Source: an uncultured bacterium
GTDB lineage: Bacteria > Muiribacteriota > UBA9980
NCBI GenBank assembly: GCA_964545075.1
Contig: CAZJFS010000006.1
Coordinates: 1 to 63,180, forward strand
DNA: 63,180 nt
Reading direction: 5' to 3'
Below are positions 4,847 to 16,821 of the stretch, one piece after another. Both the position numbers and the translations under genes were made by a program. How positions within the stretch are numbered: position 1 is the stretch's first letter; each line of letters opens with the position of its first letter. A model generated the notes under the pieces. It worked only from the letters and a program-made list of their open reading frames with translations, was not told where the DNA came from and ran no database searches.

Positions 4847-5083
4847 TATTAATTCGCCTTTCCCGATAGCGGAGCCCGCCAAATAAGATTCCCGATAGTG
4901 ATAAATCAAAAAATTTGAATATACCGGAAAGCGCCATTGAACAACTAAAAAACTATAGGAAATATGATTATCGCCACGCGCTGATGCAAGCAAAAATAAT
5001 AATAAAACAGGACTGTTTCAAAAATAATTTTGGGGGACAGCCCTGTTCAAGCTATTTAGTTTATATGGCATAAAACTTTAAGT

Positions 5084-5593
5084 TTATACTTTTTTATTCT
5101 TTTCATTCTGGATTATGAACATCTCGCCGATGGCTAAAAGCCTGGCCTGAATAAAAGTGGGTTTCTCGCTTATAACTTCCTCGAATTCATCCGTGGCTGC
5201 GTCGATGTTACCCGACTTCAAATGGACGAGCCCCATATAATATCTGGCGGCGGGGTGTTTTGAATCGACCTTCATCGCCCGCTCCAGAGCGCTTCTGGCG
5301 TCCTCCACTTTTTCGGTCTTGTAATAAGCGTATCCGAGCATTATAGCCGGAACGGGATTTATCGAAGACGCGTTTTCAGCGGCGGTCTTAAGGTATTCGA
5401 TCGATTCTTCAAATCGTTTTAATTCAAAAAGTGCCTGCGAAAGACTCAAAAGCGAGGTTTCATCCTTGGGCGACGAAACGACGGCTTCCTTCAATTCAGA
5501 AACCGCTTCCTCAAAGCGTTTTTCCTCTAAAAAACGCATTCCTTTGCTCTTATGAGAAGCCTCACCAAACAACGCCTTTAAAAAACCGAACAT
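5084..5593 (-). CDS. Tetratricopeptide repeat protein
   Basis: Repeated TPR helices (LSLSQALFELKRFEESIEYL; LGYAYYKTEKVEDARSAL; YYMGLVHLKSGNIDAA). Confidence 0.85.
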   Translation of the reverse strand: MFGFLKALFGEASHKSKGMRFLEEKRFEEAVSELKEAVVSSPKDETSLLSLSQALFELKRFEESIEYLKTAAENASSINPVPAIMLGYAYYKTEKVEDARSALERAMKVDSKHPAARYYMGLVHLKSGNIDAATDEFEEVISEKPTFIQARLLAIGEMFIIQNEKNKKV

Positions 5594-6361
5594 CTATTCA
5601 TCAACATCTTTCATATATTTCATTGGATCTACCGATTCGGGCTCGCCCTTGTCCTGATTGAGGCTTCTTATTTCAAAATAAACCCGGGACGATGCTTTTT
5701 CACCGGAAACAGCCAGTTTCTGGCCGTTTTTAATATTATCGCCCTTCTTGACGAGATTTTTTTTGTTGTTTCCATATATCGAGAACATTCCGTCGAGATG
5801 GTCCACTATTATAAGGTTCCCATAACCCTTCATCTGGCCCGCGAATACTACCTCGCCGGCGCTTATCGATTTCACGGAGCTGTTCGGAGCGGTCTTTATG
5901 AATATGCCTTTCGATTCCGGCGAAAATTTAGAGACTACTTTTCCTTTTACCGGCCAATCGAATTTCTGGGATTTAGACCTGGCTGCCCCGTCCTTGGATT
6001 TAACGGCCTTCATATAATTTTCGCGGCGCGCGTTCAAGACGGTGGGCGAACCCGGAATAAATATGCTGGCGCCCTTTTTAAGGGAATGGTTCTCTGAAAT
6101 ATTGTTGTATTTTTTCAAAGCGGCGATAGATATTCCGTATATGTCCTTGAGCTTCGAAAGCGATTCGTCAGGCGCCACTATATGAGTTATGCCGTCAACT
6201 CCAGGATTTCCGACGATCCGTTCCTCCGTCCGCACCGGCTCCTTCAATACGGCGCGTGAATCGTCACCGCCGTTTCTCTTGCACCCGGAACCGGCCGTAA
6301 GCATGAGCGAGCATATCAAAATTAAAATTATCTTATTCATTACGTTGTGTTTCATCGTCAC
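5594..6361 (-). CDS. LysM + M23 peptidase lipoprotein (NlpD-like)
   Basis: Lipobox-like TAGSGC; LysM (HIVAPDESLSKL..YGISIAALKKYNNI); M23-type FDWPVKGKVV, GYGNLIIVDH, SIYGNN (zinc ligands look degenerate, as in NlpD/EnvC activators). Confidence 0.8.
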   Translation of the reverse strand: MTMKHNVMNKIILILICSLMLTAGSGCKRNGGDDSRAVLKEPVRTEERIVGNPGVDGITHIVAPDESLSKLKDIYGISIAALKKYNNISENHSLKKGASIFIPGSPTVLNARRENYMKAVKSKDGAARSKSQKFDWPVKGKVVSKFSPESKGIFIKTAPNSSVKSISAGEVVFAGQMKGYGNLIIVDHLDGMFSIYGNNKKNLVKKGDNIKNGQKLAVSGEKASSRVYFEIRSLNQDKGEPESVDPMKYMKDVDE

Positions 6362-8448
6362 AACCTCCTCTTAATCTGTTCGATAGAATCTTCCGCGGAA
6401 TTTCTTATTATTACGTTACCGTCGCTTAAAAGTTCCGTCAAAAGCGGTATTGTCGAATCGTTTCCTATTTTTCCAAGAAGCTTCGCCGCGGCCACTTTAA
6501 CTATCCACAGGTCGTCGTTCAGCGCGCGCGTAAGCGGCAACAAGAATCTTTGGTCCACCGCGTCTATAAGAGCTTTATAAACAACGTCTATAAGTTTCGA
6601 ATCGTTCTGCTGTTTTAAAAATTTAAGTATCGGATCAAGTATCTCGGGCGTGCCGATTTTTCCGAGAGCTACGACCGAATCTTCGCGGACGCGATCCGAA
6701 GGATCCTCCAGAAGCGGTATTATAACCGGGATCACATCCTGGGCCTGAGTTTTTCCGAGCCCTTTCACGGCATTGCCGCGGACGCAGTCCTCGCTATCCT
6801 GTAACGCCTGAGTAAGGCTTTTAACGACCTGTATAGACCCTATTTCGCCTAACGCGAAAGCGGCGGAGGCCCTTTGCCATTTATCTTTTTCCTTTAAGAG
6901 CATTCCTTCCAGGGCGCTTATCATTCTTATGCCGCCGAATTTCCAGAGCGTTTTCGCGGCGTTGGCCTTAACGCGGTTATTGGAGTCGTTTTGAAATATA
7001 GGGTATATAAGATCTACTATTTCTTCTCCGCCCAGCGCCTCGAGAGTTTCAATAGCGTTCGCCCTGACGCGGGCGTCAGAATCCTTAAGGGCCGCTTCGG
7101 CGGTCTTGATATATTTTTTATCCTTCGTCTTTCCGAGTATTTCTATTATCGTCGCCCTTACCTTGTTGGACTGGTCGGTCTTATAACATTCGACGATCGG
7201 ATCGATACAGCGCAGATCGTTCAGCTGACCCGCAACCTTGATCGCGCAAACCCTGATATCTTCGTTCGAATGCCTGAAATGGGAGATCACGAGATCCATA
7301 AGTTCTTTCGCCTCGAGCGCGCCGACGGCTATCAGCGCTTCGTTAATGACCTTTTCGTGGGAACTCGTCAGCGACGATTTAAGGAAGGCGTGTATTTCAT
7401 TATCAAAAAATTTCGTTTTTCCTAGTGTTTTGCAGAGGAACACTTTTATATTGTCGTCTTCGGTCTGAAAATATTTTTTAAGGCTTGCCACATCCGAGGA
7501 AGAAACGAGCTTTTCGAGAGAGCTCATGGCGGCGTTCCTTATTTTTTCGGAAGTGGTCCTGAGGGCGTTTATCAACGACGCCGTGACCTTCGGCTCGGGG
7601 AACGACGAGAGGCATTCTATAGCCTTCGCCCTTATGTCCTCGTCGTCTATTTTAATGACCTGAATGATCGCGCCTAGCGCGCGCTTGTCGCCGATCTTCT
7701 GGAGCGAGTCGAGGCAGTTTATTTTTACCTGTTTGTCTTCGTTTTTTAAAAGAGTGTATATGAGCGGTTCGACGGTCTGCACGAGACCGAGGGCCCCGAA
7801 TATCTGTATGACATTGTTCTGCTTGGGAACGTCTTCCGTTTTCACGAGAATATAGTTGAGCCTCTTTAAAAGCAGCTGCCCCTCGAGACGCCAGAGTATG
7901 TTAGCGGCGGATATCCTCACCTTGTCGTCAGGACTGAAAAGCAGCGGATATAGCATGCTGGATGTTCTCTGATCGCCCTTGTCGGCGATGTATTTGAGAG
8001 CGAGCATCTGAACGTGCGGGCTCGGGTATTGAATGCAGCTGGGGACTATCTGAAAAACGTCATCAAAAGTTCCGAATTCGGTTATTAATATGAAGACGGC
8101 CGATTTCACCTGTTCATCGTCTTCGACCTGAAAAAGCTGAACGAGCGTTCCAACGCACTTGGTATCTCCGATCCTTCTGAGAGCTTTAATAATCTCGATC
8201 TTGACTTTCGTGTCCGATTCGAACATCGTCGCAAGAAGAAATTTAGTAGCCTTTCCATTGGCAAGAGTACCTAATGCATGGACTATATCGAGGCGCAGGT
8301 TAAGATCAGGAAGCAGATCGACGAGAGCGTCGACCGCCTGTTCCGAACCGCTCTGGCCTAAAAGCCTTATAGCTTCTCTTCTTTCGTTAAGAGAAGTGTT
8401 CTGGTTCTTGACCTTTTCAATGACTTTTTCGATATTTATAAATGACAA
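6358..8448 (-). CDS. HEAT/PBS-lyase repeat protein
   Basis: Many repeats of type LxDxDxRVRANAIExL and VRxxAAxALGxIG across the whole length. Confidence 0.9.
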   Translation of the reverse strand: MSFINIEKVIEKVKNQNTSLNERREAIRLLGQSGSEQAVDALVDLLPDLNLRLDIVHALGTLANGKATKFLLATMFESDTKVKIEIIKALRRIGDTKCVGTLVQLFQVEDDEQVKSAVFILITEFGTFDDVFQIVPSCIQYPSPHVQMLALKYIADKGDQRTSSMLYPLLFSPDDKVRISAANILWRLEGQLLLKRLNYILVKTEDVPKQNNVIQIFGALGLVQTVEPLIYTLLKNEDKQVKINCLDSLQKIGDKRALGAIIQVIKIDDEDIRAKAIECLSSFPEPKVTASLINALRTTSEKIRNAAMSSLEKLVSSSDVASLKKYFQTEDDNIKVFLCKTLGKTKFFDNEIHAFLKSSLTSSHEKVINEALIAVGALEAKELMDLVISHFRHSNEDIRVCAIKVAGQLNDLRCIDPIVECYKTDQSNKVRATIIEILGKTKDKKYIKTAEAALKDSDARVRANAIETLEALGGEEIVDLIYPIFQNDSNNRVKANAAKTLWKFGGIRMISALEGMLLKEKDKWQRASAAFALGEIGSIQVVKSLTQALQDSEDCVRGNAVKGLGKTQAQDVIPVIIPLLEDPSDRVREDSVVALGKIGTPEILDPILKFLKQQNDSKLIDVVYKALIDAVDQRFLLPLTRALNDDLWIVKVAAAKLLGKIGNDSTIPLLTELLSDGNVIIRNSAEDSIEQIKRRL

Positions 8449-8503
8449 TTTTTACCCCGGTTTTTACTTTATAAATGAGTTTATAGTTTATTTCGAATCA
8501 TTT

Positions 8504-9709
8504 TCAGCGAAGTATCTTTTCCGTAAGATCGGCGCCGGATATTTTCGAAATATATTCTTCCGAAAGGCCGAGCATTCTTCCGCAGGTTTTAGCTATGCAT
8601 GAAAAGCCTTCGACGGTATGAAGGTCGAGTCCGCGTTTCACGCAATTTCCGTATATTAAAAGAGGAACGTATTCACGAGTATGATCGGTCGTTTTGGTGA
8701 AAGTAGGATCGCATCCGTGATCGGCGGTTATCATTAAAACATCGTTATCGTTCATTCTTTTCATTATTTCAGGCAGCTGCGAGTCGAATTCCATAAGGGA
8801 TTTCGCATAACCTTCCACGTCGCGCCTATGCCCGAAAACCATATCAAAATCGACAAGATTAGTGAATATAAGACCGGTGTTGAAGCGGTCCATATAATCG
8901 AGGGTCTTTTTGACGCCGTCGGCGTTTGAAGACGTTGTTATATAATCGCTGAGGCCGCGGCAGGCGAATATATCGTATATTTTACCCACTCCTGCGGTCC
9001 TTATGCCCGATTCTTTAAGATAGTCGAGAAGATTGGCGGGCGGCTCGAGTGAAAAATCATGGCGGTGCGAGGTCCGCTTGTATTCGCCGGGCTTGCCTAT
9101 GAAGGGCCTTGCGATAACGCGGCCTACAGCATGTTTCCCTCTTAATATGCTTCTGGCCATTTTGCAGTATTCGTATAACGTTTCAAGCGGAACCGTCTCT
9201 TCATGCGCGGCTATCTGAAATACCGAATCGGCCGAAGTATAAACTATCAAGGCGCCGGTTTTCTGATGTTCTTCGCCAAGATCTTTTATTATTTCAGTAC
9301 CGGAAGCGGCATAATTACCAAGAGTTTTTCTGCCCGTAAGTTTTTCGAATTCATCCAGCACTTCAGGAGGAAAACCTTTCGGATAAGTTGGAAATTCCTG
9401 CTCAAGCTTCACGCCCATCATTTCCCAATGTCCCGTCGTCGTATCTTTTCCCGGAGACAATTCCTTTAATTTCGCGTAGGTGCCAATGGGATTGGAGCAT
9501 TTTGAAACGCTGGTCACGGTATCGATGTTTGATATGCCAAGTGAAATCAGATTGGGAATCTTAAATTCTTTAGAAGCTTTTCCTATGTTTGAAAACGTGT
9601 TTGATCCGACATCGCCGTATTTATCGGCGTCAGGCATTTCACCTATCCCTACGGAATCTAAAACTATGAGTATTACCCTGGAGATCGAATCATTTGTCTG
9701 AGTAGTCAT
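8504..9709 (-). CDS. deoB: Phosphopentomutase
   Basis: LIVLDSVGIG, GKDTTTGHWE, TSADSVFQIAAHE, NLVDFD..GHRRD, TADHGCDP, DHTRE. Confidence 0.97.
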   Translation of the reverse strand: MTTQTNDSISRVILIVLDSVGIGEMPDADKYGDVGSNTFSNIGKASKEFKIPNLISLGISNIDTVTSVSKCSNPIGTYAKLKELSPGKDTTTGHWEMMGVKLEQEFPTYPKGFPPEVLDEFEKLTGRKTLGNYAASGTEIIKDLGEEHQKTGALIVYTSADSVFQIAAHEETVPLETLYEYCKMARSILRGKHAVGRVIARPFIGKPGEYKRTSHRHDFSLEPPANLLDYLKESGIRTAGVGKIYDIFACRGLSDYITTSSNADGVKKTLDYMDRFNTGLIFTNLVDFDMVFGHRRDVEGYAKSLMEFDSQLPEIMKRMNDNDVLMITADHGCDPTFTKTTDHTREYVPLLIYGNCVKRGLDLHTVEGFSCIAKTCGRMLGLSEEYISKISGADLTEKILR

Positions 9710-9766
9710 AATTCCCCTTTTTAAGCCGGCCGGGCGGCAAAATATTTTTATGAATAAGTTTTTGAA

Positions 9767-12076
9767 TTACCACGCTTCAAATATTTTTTCAACGGCTTCG
9801 TCGTTTACCGAAAAAACGCCATGAGTTTTTTCATTTACGTCATTGTAAAAGAAAGCCGGAAGTTTCGTTCTTATATTTTCGCGACCGGAAGCATTATTGA
9901 AGGAATTTTCTTCTTTTATAAGTTTTTTCGCGATTCTGGCCGCTTCCTGAAAGGTTAGTTTTATATTATACCTTAAAGCGATTATTTTTACAAGAGAATT
10001 CCACAACTCTTGATTTTCGATAAGCGGGTATATTAAATTCGGACATAAACCAAGAGTATCCATAACATGAAAAGCCAGCTGCATATTGCGGGAAAATTCA
10101 ACCTGGCCTTCAGGATAGCTGGCGGTAACGGAAACGCCCGCATTTGAAATATTCGCGGCAGCGATATATCCCCAGGCTTTTTCTTCTGTTCCAATGGGAG
10201 ATGTGATATAAGAAACGCCAAGGCCCATTACGGCGCGCGGATCATAAGGCGGCATGGCCTCTCCCGATACGCTCACGGCGCAGCCGTCGCCTACGGATAT
10301 AGCCGCGGCATATGCGCCCTTTAATATTATCCTGCCAAGAACGGTCTGTTTGTCGATCTCTGACAGGCATGCGACCGCTATTTCGGCCGGCGAGCCTTTT
10401 TGCGTACCGGACCTGATAACTTCACATATTGCCAGAGCGATTTCGCTGAAATCAAGGCCTTTTTCCCTGCAATATCTGAGAATCCTGGCGATAACGTCGA
10501 AATTAAATATTTCGGACATAGTTCCAAGCTGCGCGATATGTTCATATTCGATATATGGCGTTTTGACGTTTTTATCATCGATAAAAATATTTTTGCATTT
10601 TACGAGGCATCCATCTATGCATGAAACGCCGCATGTTCCCTTTCGCTTTAGAATAATTTCACCAAGCGCCTGATGCGAAAGTTTGGCGATATCAGCGGAT
10701 TCGAATTTTTCATAACGGGCTATGGGCAGGGCGCCGCATTCATACAGCGGCATAACGAAGGACGCGGTGCCATACGGCGATATCATTTCCGATATGGTTC
10801 GATTTTTCAGCACGGCTTCGTTGAACTCGGAAACGAGTTTTTCATATTCGGATCTTTTTTCAATTGGAATTTCGGCAGGCATGGCGCATTCGCCGGCATC
10901 AAATACCATGGCGATAACCCCGAGGGCGCCCATTAAAAGACCGGGCCCATATTGTATGTCGGGATTTCCGGACGCGTCCGTCGCCGATATGGTAGCCGTG
11001 GCCGCTCCTTTTTGAGCCATCGGACCCGATACGATAAACGAGCAGCCGGCGCCGTGGACGCGCCTGAGCCTTTCCGTTATTTCATAATTATTAAGTCCGG
11101 CGAGGTTTTCGCCCGAAAGAAATTCAACCGAATTTTTCGAAAATTTCAAAACGTAATAATATCCCTGAGCGTCACCTTCGATTATTATTGAACGCATTCC
11201 CAGGGCCGCCATGGAAGACGCCGCGCCGGCCGGCCTCGTCATTATCTTTATTCCGTTCGTTCCGGGGCTTTTAGAACCTATCGCCAGCGAAGCGGAAGAG
11301 GTTATGCCGCTCCCCGCGAGCGCTCCGGGCGCCATAACTATCTTGTTAACTTTAACGGCGGGACTTTTCGGATCGATCTCCGAGCATATTATAGCCGAAC
11401 AGAGTGAACGGCCGAAAAGCGACGCCTTCTCCCTTTCGTCTAACTTATTGACGACGGACGCGATATTTTCAAATTTAACGGACCGTTCGAGGGTGTTTAC
11501 CCTTATGATTTTCTGATCGAATTCGCCGGCGAATGAAAACACGGACCCAGGAGTCGCAACGGAATTAAGAGTTAATATCCTGAAAGGGACGTTTTTCTGG
11601 CGAAAAAAAACCGAAATAAGATCTTTTTCGGCGGACGAAAGAACGGGCTCGTTAACGAGGAACCTCACTTGAAGGTTTTTAAAGCGCCTGGCCTGTTCAA
11701 GTATCGCCGAAGCCTCGGCCTCGACGATTTTCATATCTCCGGCGCGCACCGCTGAAACATTAGGCGAAATTTCAACTATATGCGCGCCGGCCCGGACCAT
11801 GGCATCCAGCAAAAGGCATTTTTCGGACGAGTGCGAGAGCCCCAACGGAAAATCTATCATGGTGGCGATCTTCGTCCTGGAATTTTTAAGTTTTTCGGCG
11901 GCCTGGCGTACCATGAACGGAGGAACGAGCACTTCTATGTAGTTATAGGCCAGCGCGCCTTCAATCACGTTCAGGACGGTCTCACGAGCTCCACCCGCCA
12001 TATCGATAAACGACCCGGAACATTTATAAAATTCTTTTTTTGAGATATTCATTATGCTATCACTTATAAACATCAC
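9767..12076 (-). CDS. Fusion: degenerate DeoC-like domain + aldehyde:ferredoxin oxidoreductase (AOR)-family domains
   Basis: aa ~15-175 align by eye to DeoC (IATMIDFPLG..AGAHIVEISPNVSAVRAGD); the rest has AOR features (KIIRVN, APGALAG, GSKSP, CxxxCxxxC, EYE, YDPRA, DTLGLC). Confidence 0.8.
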   Translation of the reverse strand: MMFISDSIMNISKKEFYKCSGSFIDMAGGARETVLNVIEGALAYNYIEVLVPPFMVRQAAEKLKNSRTKIATMIDFPLGLSHSSEKCLLLDAMVRAGAHIVEISPNVSAVRAGDMKIVEAEASAILEQARRFKNLQVRFLVNEPVLSSAEKDLISVFFRQKNVPFRILTLNSVATPGSVFSFAGEFDQKIIRVNTLERSVKFENIASVVNKLDEREKASLFGRSLCSAIICSEIDPKSPAVKVNKIVMAPGALAGSGITSSASLAIGSKSPGTNGIKIMTRPAGAASSMAALGMRSIIIEGDAQGYYYVLKFSKNSVEFLSGENLAGLNNYEITERLRRVHGAGCSFIVSGPMAQKGAATATISATDASGNPDIQYGPGLLMGALGVIAMVFDAGECAMPAEIPIEKRSEYEKLVSEFNEAVLKNRTISEMISPYGTASFVMPLYECGALPIARYEKFESADIAKLSHQALGEIILKRKGTCGVSCIDGCLVKCKNIFIDDKNVKTPYIEYEHIAQLGTMSEIFNFDVIARILRYCREKGLDFSEIALAICEVIRSGTQKGSPAEIAVACLSEIDKQTVLGRIILKGAYAAAISVGDGCAVSVSGEAMPPYDPRAVMGLGVSYITSPIGTEEKAWGYIAAANISNAGVSVTASYPEGQVEFSRNMQLAFHVMDTLGLCPNLIYPLIENQELWNSLVKIIALRYNIKLTFQEAARIAKKLIKEENSFNNASGRENIRTKLPAFFYNDVNEKTHGVFSVNDEAVEKIFEAW

Positions 12077-12109
12077 GCAAGGGGCATTTAAATTGCCCCT
12101 TGCTTTTTT
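12077..12109. terminator. GC-rich hairpin (10-bp stem) with T-run on the + strand, between the DeoC and AOR-fusion genes
   Basis: GCAAGGGGCA-tttaaat-TGCCCCTTGC-TTTTTT. Confidence 0.6.
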
Positions 12110-12151
12110 ATACGATGTAATAATTTTAAAAAGTATATATTGTAAAGGCTT

Positions 12152-13594
12152 TTAGTAGCCTTTTTTAGCGGACGCGACTCCCGAGACTATTGAAACGGAA
12201 GCGGAAGCGCCTATTCTTGTGGCGCCAGCGGCGATCATCGTTTTCGCTGTCTCAAGATCACGCACGCCGCCCGACGCCTTAACGCCCATGTCGGGACCGA
12301 CGGTCTTTCTCATCATGGCAATGTCGGCCGCCGTAGCGCCGCCCCCGGAAAATCCGGTGGACGTCTTTACGAAGTGAGCGCCGGCGCTCTTCGAAAGCCT
12401 GCAGGCGGTGACTTTTTCTTCATCGGTAAGAAGGCTTGTCTCAAGAATGACTTTAACGGTGTGGCCGCCGGCCGCGCGTACGACATCTCTGATATCGTCC
12501 TCTACCCGCTTCAAGTTTCCTGATTTAAGAGCGCCTATATTTATGACCATGTCTATTTCATCGGCGCCGTCAGCTATCGCCTGAACCGTTTCACAGGCTT
12601 TGGCGCTCGAGGAAGTGGCCCCGAGAGGAAAACCTACGACCGTACAGACCATTACGCCGGCATTTCTGAGACGATCCTTACAAAATTTAACCCAGCCGGG
12701 GTTTACGCAAACGGAAGCGAATTTGAATTTTCCGGCTTCTTCGCACAGCTTTTCAAATTCGGTCTGTTTAGCGTCCGGCTTTAATAGAGTGTGATCTATC
12801 ATTGAAGCCAGAGCCGAATCAAAAGCGCCCGGAACCGAACCTATACCGGGTGTAGCCGATATTCTCGCCGCTCCGGCGTTCTTAATGTTATTCACGGCGG
12901 ACTCACGTTTTACGAAACATTGGCCGCACTGCGAGCAATTCGATCCATCGCAGTTCGAAGCCGCGGGCACGTTTGAACAAGATCTTTCACATGCCGTTTC
13001 AAGGCCTCTGCAAATCCCGGACATCGGAACTACGGTTACGCCCATTTCGGTTAACTTCGCTATTTTCTGATTTATCTCGCGCATGATGGCCGGATTCGCG
13101 TTTCCAAGCTGGCTCAAAAGCGGCTCGGATGAAACTATTAAAGTTTTTTTATTGATCACGTGCCAGATAAGATAGTTACATACCATCGAATCGGTGTTCA
13201 AGCCTGAAATATGGGTCAGGGCCGAAAGCGAAAGAAAAGGAACTATCACGCTCTGGTACTTTTGCAGGAACAATGTCCTTTCCGCATAGCTGAATGAAGT
13301 ATAAATTTCACCGGCTTTTAAGCGAGAGCGAAGTTCAGCGACGTCAAAGACGGACTTAGCTCCGTCAGAGAGAAGTATGTCATATTTGAGCCCGCCGGCG
13401 CGTTCGATCTCACGATAGAAATCTTCCCGCATATTGGGAACGCCCGTAAAGACGATAAGGACTTTTCCGGATGACGCGGCTTCGGTTGAAGGCTTATAGG
13501 ACTGCGCCGTGGAACCGGAAACGTTACCCGTGGAAGTTTTAATCGTGCTCAAAACCTCGCGGGTGATCATATCGATCAAATTTTTATTATCCAT
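12152..13594 (-). CDS. deoC: BMC-associated deoxyribose-phosphate aldolase with N-terminal encapsulation peptide, flavoprotein-like domain and Cys-rich linker
   Basis: C-terminal DeoC intact ([54 protein letters not shown]); N-terminus [18 protein letters not shown] is an amphipathic EP-type helix. Confidence 0.9.
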
Positions 13595-13682
13595 GTTAAT
13601 TCTCCCGTCATTATGAAAAAATGGTCATGCCGTTTCATCGCCGTTTTTTAAAAAACGGTTCATGAATTTCCACGCGATATTA

Positions 13683-14036
13683 TTACAGCGTGGAAGCGGT
13701 GGGGAGTATCCTTTCTACGTCTTCGTGCGGAGAAGGAATCACATGAACGCTTATGAGCTTTCCGACTTTTGAAGCCGCCTGAGCGCCAGCGTCAGTAGCC
13801 GCTTTTACAGCGCCTACGTCGCCTCTTACCATGCAGGTAACATAGCCTGCGCCGATCTGTTTCCATCCGATAAGTTCCACGTTAGCGGCTTTGACCATTG
13901 CGTCTCCAGCCTCTATCATAGGGATCAATCCGTAGGTTTCGATCATTCCGAGCGCTTTTTTCACATTAATCATCCTTTCGTTATTTTCGATTATTATTTT
14001 TTCATTTATCGTTTTTTCTTGCTTACTCTTGGACAT
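13683..14036 (-). CDS. BMC hexameric shell protein (BMC-H, EutM/PduA-like)
   Basis: [42 protein letters not shown]. Start may be downstream (GTG before KKALG, with AGGA RBS). Confidence 0.95.
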
Positions 14037-14082
14037 TTACACCAGCTCTTTATGGTTAAAATATATATCAGGAAAAGCTAAT

Positions 14083-14370
14083 TTACTTTGCCTCCACCCA
14101 TCCGTCCAGATCGACCGTATCGACGACGCCGACTATAACTAGATTGACCGGCATCTTATTTCTTTTCAAGACTATTTTCGCCGAACCGCCTTCTTTAAGT
14201 ATGAGCACCAGATCGCCTTCACCGGCGTCCACCGAATCAACGGCCACAAGGGGTTTTCCAACAGGATTTCCCGAAATGTCGGTCTGCTTGACAAGCATCA
14301 GTTTGAAGCCTTCAAGCGTTTTATTCTTTATGGTGGAAACTACGTTCCCTATGACCTTTCCAAGTATCAT
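14083..14370 (-). CDS. BMC pentameric vertex protein (BMC-P, EutN/CcmL)
   Basis: MILGKVIGNVVSTIK..LEGFKLMLV..VAVDSVDAGEGDLVL..IVGVVD. Confidence 0.95.
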   Translation of the reverse strand: MILGKVIGNVVSTIKNKTLEGFKLMLVKQTDISGNPVGKPLVAVDSVDAGEGDLVLILKEGGSAKIVLKRNKMPVNLVIVGVVDTVDLDGWVEAK

Positions 14371-14380
14371 TACGATGCCC

Positions 14381-14668
14381 CTACGTTATTTTCAGCAGAT
14401 TCAATCCTGATTTTATTTCATCGATTATTCCGATTATACCCATGTCCGTCGGCGTATTCGGTTCACTGAACGCGTTCGTGGCTTCACGGCTTTCGATGAT
14501 CAATACGACTTCGCCGTTTCCGGCGCCGACGGTATCGACGGCCACGAAAGGCGGCCCTATCGCCGTAAGTTCCTCATTTATAGGCTCAACGAAAAGCATT
14601 TTGCTTCCCTTAAGCGTCTCCCATTTACAGGTCGAAACGAGGCTCCCGCATACGCGTCCAAGTATCAT
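14381..14668 (-). CDS. BMC pentameric vertex protein (BMC-P, EutN/CcmL)
   Basis: MILGRVCGSLVSTCK..VAVDTVGAGNGEVVL..PTDMGIIGIID. Confidence 0.95.
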   Translation of the reverse strand: MILGRVCGSLVSTCKWETLKGSKMLFVEPINEELTAIGPPFVAVDTVGAGNGEVVLIIESREATNAFSEPNTPTDMGIIGIIDEIKSGLNLLKIT

Positions 14669-15354
14669 TCGAAGCGCACCGTTATCCCCTTAGCCCGCGC
14701 CGCGTCCTTCGCGAGGTCAGTAACTATAGTGCCTTTAGCGATAATAAGTTCCGTCCCGCCCTGGCATTTTTTGACGTATTCCTCGGAGATCAATACGGGA
14801 TGAGATACGCTTGCGACCGGGTTCGATGCGTTTCCGCCGTAACCTATGGCCGCGAGAACTCTTGTTATTATCGTTTTTACAAGACCTTCGTCCAGCGATC
14901 CGCCTGATACGGATGCGAACGGAGCGTAGTTTAATATTTTATCGACCCTTTTCGAATGGCGTCCGCCTTCGAATTTAGCTTCGATAAAAGTATCCACGAG
15001 CTTTTTAGCAAGGCCCGTGCCTACGACCATCGATCCCATGCACATAACGTTGGCGCCGTTGTGCTCGCGGGCATTGCGCGTAACGTAAAGTTCATTGCAT
15101 ACCGCGGCGAGAACGCCGGGAACGCGGTTTGCGCACATGGATGATCCGATACCGGCGCCGTCAATCATGATCCCGACCGCCCTGGGGTCGGCCGAAACGT
15201 ATTCAGCCACCTTGAAGGCAAAATCGGGATAATCGCAGGCGTCCTTCGATTTCGTTCCAACGTCGATCACGTTATGGTTCAAGCTTTTCAGGTAATCGAC
15301 AATGACGCATTTAAGATCATAGCCGCCATGATCGGCTCCTATGACTATGTCCAT
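14665..15354 (-). CDS. rpiB: RpiB/LacAB-family sugar-phosphate isomerase with encapsulation peptide and extra C-terminal domain
   Basis: IGADHGG, DYPD, AREHNGANV, FEGGRHSKRV; then LDEGLVKTIITRVLAAI (EP-like) and a ~45-aa tail. Confidence 0.9.
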   Translation of the reverse strand: MDIVIGADHGGYDLKCVIVDYLKSLNHNVIDVGTKSKDACDYPDFAFKVAEYVSADPRAVGIMIDGAGIGSSMCANRVPGVLAAVCNELYVTRNAREHNGANVMCMGSMVVGTGLAKKLVDTFIEAKFEGGRHSKRVDKILNYAPFASVSGGSLDEGLVKTIITRVLAAIGYGGNASNPVASVSHPVLISEEYVKKCQGGTELIIAKGTIVTDLAKDAARAKGITVRFE

Positions 15355-15379
15355 AGCTTTTCCACCTTTTTAAAAGCGA

Positions 15380-15664
15380 TTATTTTTCATCAAACTGAGG
15401 AATGAGCTTTTCGGTTTCTGCGTGCGGACGAGGGATTACGTGAACGCTCAAAAGTTCCCCGACCCTCTGCGCAGCCTGAGCGCCAGCGTCAGTAGCCGCT
15501 TTTACAGCGCCTACATCGCCTCTTACCATAGCCGTTACAAGGCCGGCGCCTATCTGTACCTGCCCGACGAGAGTTACGTTAGCGGCCTTTACCATAGCAT
15601 CAGCGGCTTCTATCGAACCGATGAGGCCTTTTGTCTCTACCATACCTAATGCTTCTTTAATCAT
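15380..15664 (-). CDS. BMC hexameric shell protein (BMC-H, EutM/PduA-like)
   Basis: [46 protein letters not shown]. Confidence 0.97.
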
Positions 15665-15699
15665 TGTGTAATACCCCTTTCAAATAATTAGGTGCAATC

Positions 15700-15728
15700 A
15701 TTATATTATTAATTTCACAAAATGTCAA
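15700..15728 (-). promoter_or_regulatory. Consensus sigma70 promoter of the BMC operon
   Basis: Minus strand TTGACA-17 nt-TATAAT, ~35 nt upstream of the first BMC-H start. Confidence 0.85.
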
Positions 15729-16074
15729 GCCCGCCGGTTCTAACTATTTCATATCATCATGCGTCGGAACCGCTATCGGTTAAACCTTGAAATAGCATAT
15801 TAATAAAAAAAATATTGTTGATTTTATTTTTTCATCCGCCGAATTATTTCTTTTAACTAACTTTATCCGTATAATCGCGAACAGAGTCGGCGCAAAACTT
15901 AAAATACCGCTCGTTATTATCGCGGCGGCCGAAAACGATACGATCGCAAAGCCATAAGGCGCATGAGTTTCATGCAATCGTAAACGCCTTGCATCCTGAA
16001 ATTCAAAATTTACGACGCTTATCTCTAAAAACGCAGCCGGCCTCGGCAATAAGCGGACTATTTCGAAATAGCCG

Positions 16075-16103
16075 TTGTAAAAAAGCTTAAAATATTGTAT
16101 AAT
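16075..16103 (+). promoter_or_regulatory. sigma70 promoter with extended -10
   Basis: TTGTAA-17-TATAAT, TG before the -10, upstream of 16162. Confidence 0.6.
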
Positions 16104-16161
16104 GAATATTGAATTAGTTTAACTTTAAACCCAAAATAACTTTCTGGAGGTAAGCCCGAAC

Positions 16162-16821
16162 ATGACCGACGACAAAGATAAAACTCCGCCGGCTTCTCAA
16201 AACGCAAATGTTAAGTCGATATGGCAGAAATCAAATCCTTTCGGAAAATTCGAATCTAAAAAAATACATAGGACCCAGGAAGATGAAGACAGGGAAAAGG
16301 CGGAAATAGCGGCCGCCGCAAAAAAAGCCGAGCCCAAGGTCGAAGAAATCCTCAATATTCCAACCAGCGAGCTGACCGAAGAGCAGATCGACGTCCTTAA
16401 AAAAAAGGGCAAATTGCCGACCGTTATAAAAGTGGTCGATTTTACGGGCTCCACGGAAGGGGCTTTGATAAAAATATTGATTTCCGTGAGAAATTGCGGA
16501 GATGCTCTTGCGCGCGACGTTAAGGTCAAGTGCATAGGCAACGCGAGGCTTAGAGCGGCATCAAGCCCGATGGCCCCGGTCGGAGACATAGTCACTAAAT
16601 CAAAGGGCGTGGCCCAATTCACTTATGAAATGCCCAACAATTTTTGCGAGGAATACGCTAACTTCGCCGTGTCGGCCGAAGCCGAAAATTCAAAAACTTT
16701 TTCACAGCTTTTTACCGTAAAAACGGGAAGGCGCCCGCTTTCAGCGTCCGAGATCATGCAGAAAGTCGAAGCGGAAGCGCGCGGCCAGAACAAAGTCAAG
16801 CCACCCGTCGGCGGCGGTTAA
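16162..16821 (+). CDS. Hypothetical protein, charged N-terminus and Ig-like/CARDB-like beta domain
   Basis: RBS GGAGG; beta pattern IKILISVRNCGDALARDVKV..VGDI..AQFTYEM. Confidence 0.6.
   Translation: MTDDKDKTPPASQNANVKSIWQKSNPFGKFESKKIHRTQEDEDREKAEIAAAAKKAEPKVEEILNIPTSELTEEQIDVLKKKGKLPTVIKVVDFTGSTEGALIKILISVRNCGDALARDVKVKCIGNARLRAASSPMAPVGDIVTKSKGVAQFTYEMPNNFCEEYANFAVSAEAENSKTFSQLFTVKTGRRPLSASEIMQKVEAEARGQNKVKPPVGGG

Follow-up and report, generated by a model that had tools for sequence, protein, structure and literature searches.

The fusion gene and its surroundings

A 63,180-nucleotide stretch of DNA from an uncultured bacterium of the phylum Muiribacteriota (contig CAZJFS010000006.1, positions 1 to 63,180; referred to below as the window) carries on its minus strand an open reading frame (9767..12076) in which a domain resembling the aldolase DeoC is fused to a body of the aldehyde:ferredoxin oxidoreductase (AOR) family. 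Both parts have a confidently predicted fold, both have lost catalytic motifs of the enzymes that they resemble, and the gene is under purifying selection. Translation from GTG 12076 gives 769 amino acids, and translation from ATG 12052, probably the true start, gives 761. The ATG is the likelier of the two, because a hairpin (12077-12103) abuts the GTG and because the fusion orthologue in genome G080 begins MNFKKEDIL, where the alternative start in the window gives MNISKKEF. The original prediction had described this reading frame as a dead, truncated DeoC joined to an AOR-like part, placed beside an intact DeoC in a microcompartment operon, and had known of no such example. Pfam, TIGR00126, BLASTP, AlphaFold2 and Foldseek agree on the fusion, the gene map, Pfam and TIGR00126 agree on the locus, and a published description was not found.

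Few types of microcompartment are as widespread as the sugar-phosphate-utilization (SPU) type, of which, to our knowledge, no example has been characterized biochemically. In the window, a sigma-70-type promoter (15700-15728, 12/12 match to TTGACA-17-TATAAT), likely the promoter of the operon, precedes the first bacterial microcompartment (BMC) shell gene. It is followed, all on the minus strand, by BMC-H (15380-15664), RpiB with a C-terminal extension as an SPU-type cargo gene (14665-15354), two BMC-P shell genes (14381-14668 and 14083-14370), a second BMC-H (13683-14036) and a DeoC protein of 480 amino acids (12152..13594; TIGR00126, 280 bits). Judged from this gene content, BMC-H and BMC-P shell genes with DeoC (PF01791) and RpiB (PF02502), the window locus falls under the definition of an SPU microcompartment given by Axen 2014 and Sutter 2021 (PMC8217296). 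Immediately downstream of the fusion lies the phosphopentomutase gene deoB (8504..9709, minus strand), followed on the same strand by genes for a 696-residue HEAT-repeat protein and a LysM/M23 peptidase.

The DeoC protein itself is composite, with an encapsulation-peptide-like N-terminus and a flavoprotein-like domain ahead of the intact DeoC. More precisely, a helix, the flavoprotein-like domain and a Cys-rich segment are fused to DeoC, and flavoprotein-DeoC proteins occur in families f1, f2, f6 and f11 of the phylum. A 2025 preprint on Hodarchaeales called the flavoprotein-DERA fusion uncommon (PMC12747264).

Between the DeoC stop codon and the start of the fusion lies a GC-rich hairpin with a 10-bp stem (12077..12103, minus strand); the two closest orthologues have it too, with compensatory changes. 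No match to Rfam was found across positions 5000-16500 of the window.

A truncated DeoC-like domain

The first part of the fusion contains a truncated, catalytically dead half barrel of the DeoC (DERA) type, which covers strands beta2-beta6 (residues ~30-168; 11573..11986, minus strand) as delimited by alignment, AlphaFold2 and Foldseek. Residues 31-151 align to positions 17-134 of the 211 positions of the NCBIfam model TIGR00126 (deoC) with an E-value of 1e-14, at a score of 51-54 bits that is far under the 117.3-bit cut-off. With BLASTP, the domain aligned to the adjacent DeoC (12152-13594) at 26% identity over 115 amino acids (E 2e-11), and the residue pairs that had been quoted earlier as shared by the two proteins are present in this alignment. 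DERAs in the PDB were matched with phmmer at E 5e-8. The Pfam DeoC family PF01791 had no match in the first ~185 residues, even at E<=10. The domain split proposed as a check was thus recovered on the AOR side, where PF02730 and PF01314 both matched, and on the DeoC side only as the TIGR00126 alignment below cut-off.

An AlphaFold2 model of the fusion, built on 47 aligned sequences, reached a pLDDT of 88.6 and a pTM of 0.83, with five beta-alpha units in the N-terminal domain. When this model was searched with Foldseek, the top nine matches were AOR-family enzymes (1aor and 9g7j at TM 0.85), and among the matches listed, numbers 10-50 were all DERAs, with ~150 of ~215 columns aligned and E-values from 6e-7 to 8e-4. 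The N-terminus does model as part of a DeoC-type barrel, and the observation of a fusion therefore stands. Given the BLASTP, TIGR00126, PDB and Foldseek matches, the similarity to DeoC is well above chance and the truncation is real. The pTM of the whole protein also suggests, indirectly, a fixed packing of the half barrel against the AOR body.

The losses within the domain were traced in an alignment of all 15 distinct members of the fusion family that we collected, together with 7 true DeoCs from the same lineages. The IDHT motif, the Schiff-base motif FVKTSTG and everything from strand beta7 on are missing from all 15 fusions, and none of them has a lysine at the Schiff-base position. In the window protein, FVKTSTG is replaced by PFRILTL, with Arg166 as the equivalent of the Schiff-base lysine (K167 in E. 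coli). The equivalents of Asp102 and Lys137 are Glu102 and Arg138, and the DHT motif reads DMA. Strands beta7-8 (GVKASGG, RIGAS), which hold the second lysine and the phosphate-binding loops, are absent. Compared with true DERAs (TIGR00126, PF01791; for example 5dbu, 6d33 and 1jcl), the domain shares the homologous strands beta2-beta6 with their FPLG and PN motifs, but differs from them in lacking the Schiff-base lysine, an equivalent of Lys201 and the phosphate-binding strands, in having a helix in place of strand beta1 (IDHTLL), and in its score far under the family cut-off. With these residues gone, the half barrel is predicted to be unable to form a Schiff base or to bind sugar phosphate.

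An AOR-like body without cofactor anchors

The remainder of the protein consists of an AFOR_N-like domain (PF02730; residues 189-393, 10898..11512, minus strand; E 6e-24, 85.3 bits against a cut-off of 29.8) and AFOR_C-like domains 2-3 (PF01314; residues 414-749, 9830..10837, minus strand; E 1e-35, 124 bits against a cut-off of 27). We compared the window fusion with PfAOR (1aor) and other solved AORs, and the 15 fusions with 9 reference AORs and with 93 unfused relatives; reference positions below follow PfAOR.

Part of the active site is still recognizable. The CxxxCxxxC motif (Cys486, Cys490 and Cys494; 10595..10621, minus strand) and Cys678 (nt 10043-10045) are retained as [4Fe-4S] ligands, corresponding to C288, C291, C295 and C494 of PfAOR, in the window fusion and in all members from f1, the window's lineage. 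Also retained in the window fusion are the second-shell residues Thr437 (T243), Tyr511 and Glu512 (Y312 and E313), Tyr611 (Y427) and Asp673 (D489).

The anchors of the cofactor have fared differently. Arg76, Arg182 and Asp338 reportedly serve to hold it in place. In the window fusion, Arg76 is replaced by Ser263 and Asp338 (DxxGLD) by Arg537. The Asn93 loop ESNxGG reads IMTRPA (residues 278-283), and the Arg182/Ala183 motif GRGGxGAVxGSKxxK reads QYGPGLLMGALGVI (residues 375-388), with QYGPGLLMGALG at the GRGGxGAVxGSK part. His448 is replaced by Glu632. Asn93 and Ala183 are the Mg ligands, and T243, E313, Y427 and H448 are nearly universally conserved in the AOR/WOR family (PMC12096430, PMC13328260). 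Arg76, the Asn93 loop, the Arg182 motif and Asp338 are intact in all nine reference AORs, and His448 is present in 88 of the 93 unfused relatives; none of the 15 fusions has His448, Asp338 or the Asn93 loop. Of the 48 columns with at least 90% conservation among the 93 unfused AORs, 29 are retained by the window fusion (median of the unfused proteins 47, minimum 33).

The losses are not uniform over the family. Arg76 and the Arg182 motif are additionally gone in f1, and other lineages retain the Arg182 motif. The iron-sulfur (Fe-S) cysteines are lost in four of the 15 fusions (G006, L021, L022 and L023) and retained in f1, G005, G008 and G009. Because the losses are mosaic, and in four members include even the Fe-S cysteines, cofactor chemistry is, on the evidence of these residues, not what selection preserves in the family. 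The positions that are invariant across the family are structural Gly, Pro and Arg residues, and no new constellation of residues is invariant.

A separate observation concerns the His448 position (window residue 632, nt 10181-10183). Eleven of the 15 fusions have Glu there, among them every f1 member, in which it forms part of a conserved EEK. The substitution is non-random and could mark a new conserved role.

The closest unfused proteins belong to a subfamily of stand-alone bacterial AOR/WOR proteins of ~570 amino acids (among them P0009, P0010, P0004 and P0005), which is part of the tungsten aldehyde:ferredoxin oxidoreductase family (PfAOR 1aor, CaAOR 9g7j), and the fusions nest inside this subfamily. 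The two share the three-domain fold (TM 0.85), the CxxxCxxxC...C pattern and 30-34% identity. The stand-alone proteins differ in being unfused, in retaining R76, the N93 loop, the R182 motif, D338 and H448, and in their non-BMC surroundings (for example an aminotransferase, a permease and a sigma-54 regulator), whereas the fusions have gained a DeoC-like module of 185 residues and lost the listed motifs. A JGI metagenome fragment that is 83% identical to the fusion (P0003) is publicly named 'aldehyde:ferredoxin oxidoreductase'; since the cofactor motifs are lost, this name is probably a functional mis-annotation.

Single origin and purifying selection

A search of the 87 species genomes of the window's phylum recovered full-length fusions only in f1, f4 and f5, 3 of the 11 families of the phylum. 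When 1.84 billion representative proteins were searched exhaustively and without a profile, five further clusters that cover the N-terminal domain came up, at 21-26% identity. A protein search with an alignment of 7 fusions added no matches to those obtained with the single sequence, and a search for related loci with the single protein led only to a metagenome-assembled genome of the same genus. In a quick IQ-TREE analysis, the AOR parts of the fusions form one clade (SH-aLRT 96) nested in the ~570-residue unfused subfamily, with stems of 1.2-1.3 substitutions per site leading to f1 and f5. The fusion family is of single origin.

The ratio of nonsynonymous to synonymous substitution rates (dN/dS) was determined for the window fusion and its same-genus orthologue, and amounted to 0.08 for the N-terminal domain and 0.10 for both AFOR_N and AFOR_C, compared with 0.04 for DeoB, 0.06 for DeoC and 0.13 for RpiB. 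Since all parts stay near 0.1, the fusion is functional and under purifying selection, not a relic. Degenerate catalytic motifs in both halves might have been taken as signs of a decaying gene without function, but such decay is hard to reconcile with a reading frame that is intact in 15 lineages at 18-83% identity, with the confidently predicted fold, and above all with the dN/dS values, on which we dismissed it as extremely improbable.

Selection on the residual active site could also reflect a new activity. A neo-functionalized enzyme or redox protein might use the Fe-S cluster together with the conserved Glu that stands in for His448, either to catalyze a different reaction or to pass electrons to PduS and BMC-T. 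The four cysteines retained in f1, G005, G008 and G009, the Glu in 11 of the 15 members and the f1 second-shell residues, which are kept at a dN/dS of ~0.1, speak for such a protein. Against this, four members of the same architecture lack the cysteines, and the family as a whole has no invariant new residue constellation. We regard a new catalytic or redox function as unlikely.

Aldehyde dehydrogenase in the same genome

The original prediction saw in the fusion a substitute for the canonical aldehyde dehydrogenase (AldDH) of microcompartments. The genome of the window does encode an acylating AldDH of the EutE/PduP type. Its gene is split across an assembly gap, with the body at the end of contig C124 (12313-13404) and the N-terminus at the start of contig C88 (2-334), and the C88 part lies immediately downstream of genes for a PduL-type phosphotransacetylase (PTAC) and BMC-P. 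The N-terminus of the AldDH (MFPNEQQIQKIVEDVIKKM) resembles an encapsulation peptide and has a hydrophobic moment of 0.71. A PduS-like protein and BMC-T are encoded in a separate satellite locus on contig C105 (2427-4337). Because PTAC, BMC-P and AldDH (C88:2-1374 and C124:12313-13404) and PduS and BMC-T (C105:2427-4337) are held by satellite loci outside the window, the seemingly minimal window locus is one of three pieces.

In family f5, by comparison, a single operon reads PTAC, H, P, AldDH, PduS, BMC-T, unknown, RpiB, P, P, H, DeoC, fusion, DeoB. The protein of unknown family between BMC-T and RpiB in the f5 loci (L018:6128-7180; also L032, L033, L034 and L021) has ~350 residues; its middle is acidic and of low complexity, its C-terminal tail is hydrophobic, and it is absent from the window's family.

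Measured against catalogued SPU loci (PMC4207490; PMC8217296) and the Hodarchaeales AMC (PMC12747264), the window's genome has the expected components: BMC-H, BMC-P, an encapsulation-peptide DeoC (here flavoprotein-DeoC) and RpiB, with AldDH, PduL, PduS and BMC-T present elsewhere in the genome. It differs in that the locus is in three pieces and in that a fusion-deoB block follows.

These data bear on the proposal that the fusion is an active AOR, carried into the shell by hetero-oligomers of dead and real DeoC, which oxidizes acetaldehyde to acetate in place of the CoA-acylating AldDH. The position of the fusion directly after DeoC on the same strand fits the proposal, as do the four cysteines, E313, Y312, T243 and Y427 kept in the window's lineage. 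Because three canonical AOR paralogues are encoded in the genome, cofactor synthesis is presumably available, and the PduS-like protein and BMC-T could carry electrons across the shell. The residues argue the other way: His448 is Glu, Asp338 is Arg, Arg76 is Ser, the Asn93 loop and the Arg182 motif are gone, and relatives without Fe-S cysteines show no change in architecture or context. An encapsulation peptide could not be made out with confidence on the fusion, and the fusion coexists with an encapsulation-peptide AldDH, PTAC and BMC-P in the window's genome and, in f5, within the same operon. Neither the oxidation of acetaldehyde by an AOR nor the replacement of AldDH thus finds support; both run counter to the data, and we consider the proposal very unlikely. 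We infer that the fusion does not oxidize acetaldehyde in place of AldDH, and the idea of a metabolosome that is based on an AOR and does without AldDH should be given up.

Gene neighborhood across the family

Gene contexts were compared for all 15 fusion loci. In every one of them deoB is the next gene, at distances from a 4-bp overlap to ~130 bp; in about half of the loci the gap measures 3-25 bp. The block RpiB-P-P-H-DeoC precedes the fusion in 11 loci. In G005, the BMC locus lies on a different contig and ends at DeoC, and the metagenomic contigs L022 and L023 lack BMC genes in the vicinity of the fusion. In these three cases a fusion-deoB-(HEAT)-LysM/M23 block stands away from BMC genes. 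In the sister families f2 and f6, the SPU loci end at DeoC, without fusion and without deoB. BMC genes as such were found in all 18 genomes examined from families f1-f5. These contexts (15 of 15 loci for deoB, 11 of 15 for the BMC block, and SPU loci without fusion) link the fusion primarily to deoB and secondarily to the microcompartment.

Beyond deoB, nearly all loci continue with genes for a HEAT-repeat protein of ~700 residues and a LysM/M23 peptidase (5594-8448 in the window). In L016, L022 and L023 the block extends to LpxL-like and Elm1-like genes, and in L022 and L023 to DnaG and RpoD. From its gene content, this block looks like a conserved housekeeping neighborhood that the BMC block abuts.

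The strict linkage to deoB raises the question of whether the fusion is a cytosolic partner or regulator of phosphopentomutase that has no physical link to the microcompartment, with the BMC neighborhood a lineage-specific juxtaposition. The short gaps or overlap with deoB, the fusion-deoB blocks away from BMC genes in G005, L022 and L023, and the SPU loci of f2 and f6 that end at DeoC are all in line with this, as is the fact that several f1 genomes have hairpins separating the fusion from DeoC. Set against it are the origin of the N-terminal domain from DeoC, the signature cargo of the microcompartment, and the presence of BMC genes in every searched genome of the three fusion-bearing families. 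A physical complex of the fusion with DeoB was also modelled. Since fusion and deoB share a reading frame, the single TAA between them could be read through, and the resulting fusion-linker-DeoB chain (1190 amino acids; 6 paired and 35 unpaired alignment rows) was folded with AlphaFold2. It reached a pTM of 0.64, compared with 0.83 for the fusion alone, with a disordered linker and no confident docking. Such a complex is thus unsupported by the model, which is a weak negative result. A purely cytosolic role appears rather unlikely.

A proposed non-catalytic role for the fusion

Dead enzyme domains have been proposed as scaffolds in microcompartments before (PMC4207490). The second AldDH of GRM1 loci and the gamma-CA and RbcS-like domains of CcmM resemble the fusion in that a dead paralogue of a cargo enzyme is kept in or beside the locus. 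The fusion differs from these systems in joining two unrelated dead modules, in a scaffold role that is putative, and in a link to the locus that is not universal. For CcmM, it is known that these domains act as a scaffold in the carboxysome.

By analogy with such domains, we infer an adaptor role for the fusion. It would be a selected and folded 'double pseudoenzyme' that serves as a non-catalytic accessory or adaptor of the deoxyribose-phosphate branch, from DeoB to DeoC, and we put the chances of this interpretation at about even. Its DeoC-derived half barrel would neither form a Schiff base nor bind sugar phosphate, and its AOR body would keep the fold and, in this lineage, the four [4Fe-4S] cysteines, but not the anchors for the tungsten-bis-pyranopterin or His448. 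As an adaptor subunit it might still hold an Fe-S cluster in the f1 lineage. The real DeoC, or else the core of the microcompartment, would most plausibly be contacted by the dead DeoC module, and by the same analogy the fusion may dock through this module.

Several observations weigh against the adaptor interpretation. First, no clear encapsulation peptide was seen on the fusion: the best 14-residue hydrophobic moment at its N-terminus is 0.50, compared with 0.60 for the DeoC peptide and 0.71 for the AldDH peptide (genome median 0.41, 90th percentile 0.60), and in the AlphaFold2 model its N-terminal helix abuts the barrel without a linker. Second, the four of 15 fusions that are not adjacent to microcompartment genes weaken the docking idea. 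Third, U-tailed, terminator-like hairpins occupy the position between DeoC and fusion in other f1 genera (the intergenic regions of the window, L025, L001, L026, L027 and L029 were compared), and through such hairpins transcription of the BMC genes may be attenuated or terminated ahead of fusion and deoB. Fourth, the lack of confident docking in the read-through chain counts here as well, as the weak negative that it is. Finally, f1 retains T243, E311, Y312, E313, Y427, D489 and all four cysteines under selection, and judged by these residues some residual or altered cofactor chemistry may persist in that lineage.

A bolder version of the adaptor interpretation would make the fusion a CcmM-like organizer of a catabolic microcompartment. 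The dead DeoC module would pair with the encapsulation-peptide DeoC, and the AOR body would serve to cross-link the cargo core or to nucleate it, while holding phosphopentomutase at the place where deoxyribose-5-phosphate is consumed. We offer this as speculation and think it improbable as it stands; if true, it would be the first metabolosome scaffold built from a pseudo-copy of its own signature enzyme.

Significance

Our literature search found no paper that links AOR, DeoC and microcompartments in the sense of the fusion. The accessible parts of the BMC catalogue supplements contain no AOR Pfam terms, and a 2026 WOR classification mentions neither a fusion nor an aldolase. One study speculated that separate AORs detoxify aldehydes in BMC-bearing Auribacterota.

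The findings matter for annotation, as pipelines name the fusion an aldehyde:ferredoxin oxidoreductase (JGI), which would introduce a wrong acetaldehyde-to-acetate, ferredoxin-reducing step in metabolic reconstructions of these uncultured bacteria. The lineages of the family have lost different motifs, and thereby provide a natural experiment that records how a tungsten-cofactor site is lost step by step. As a double pseudoenzyme linked to deoC and deoB and long maintained by selection, the fusion is also a concrete candidate for an organizer or adaptor of the pathway that acts without catalysis.

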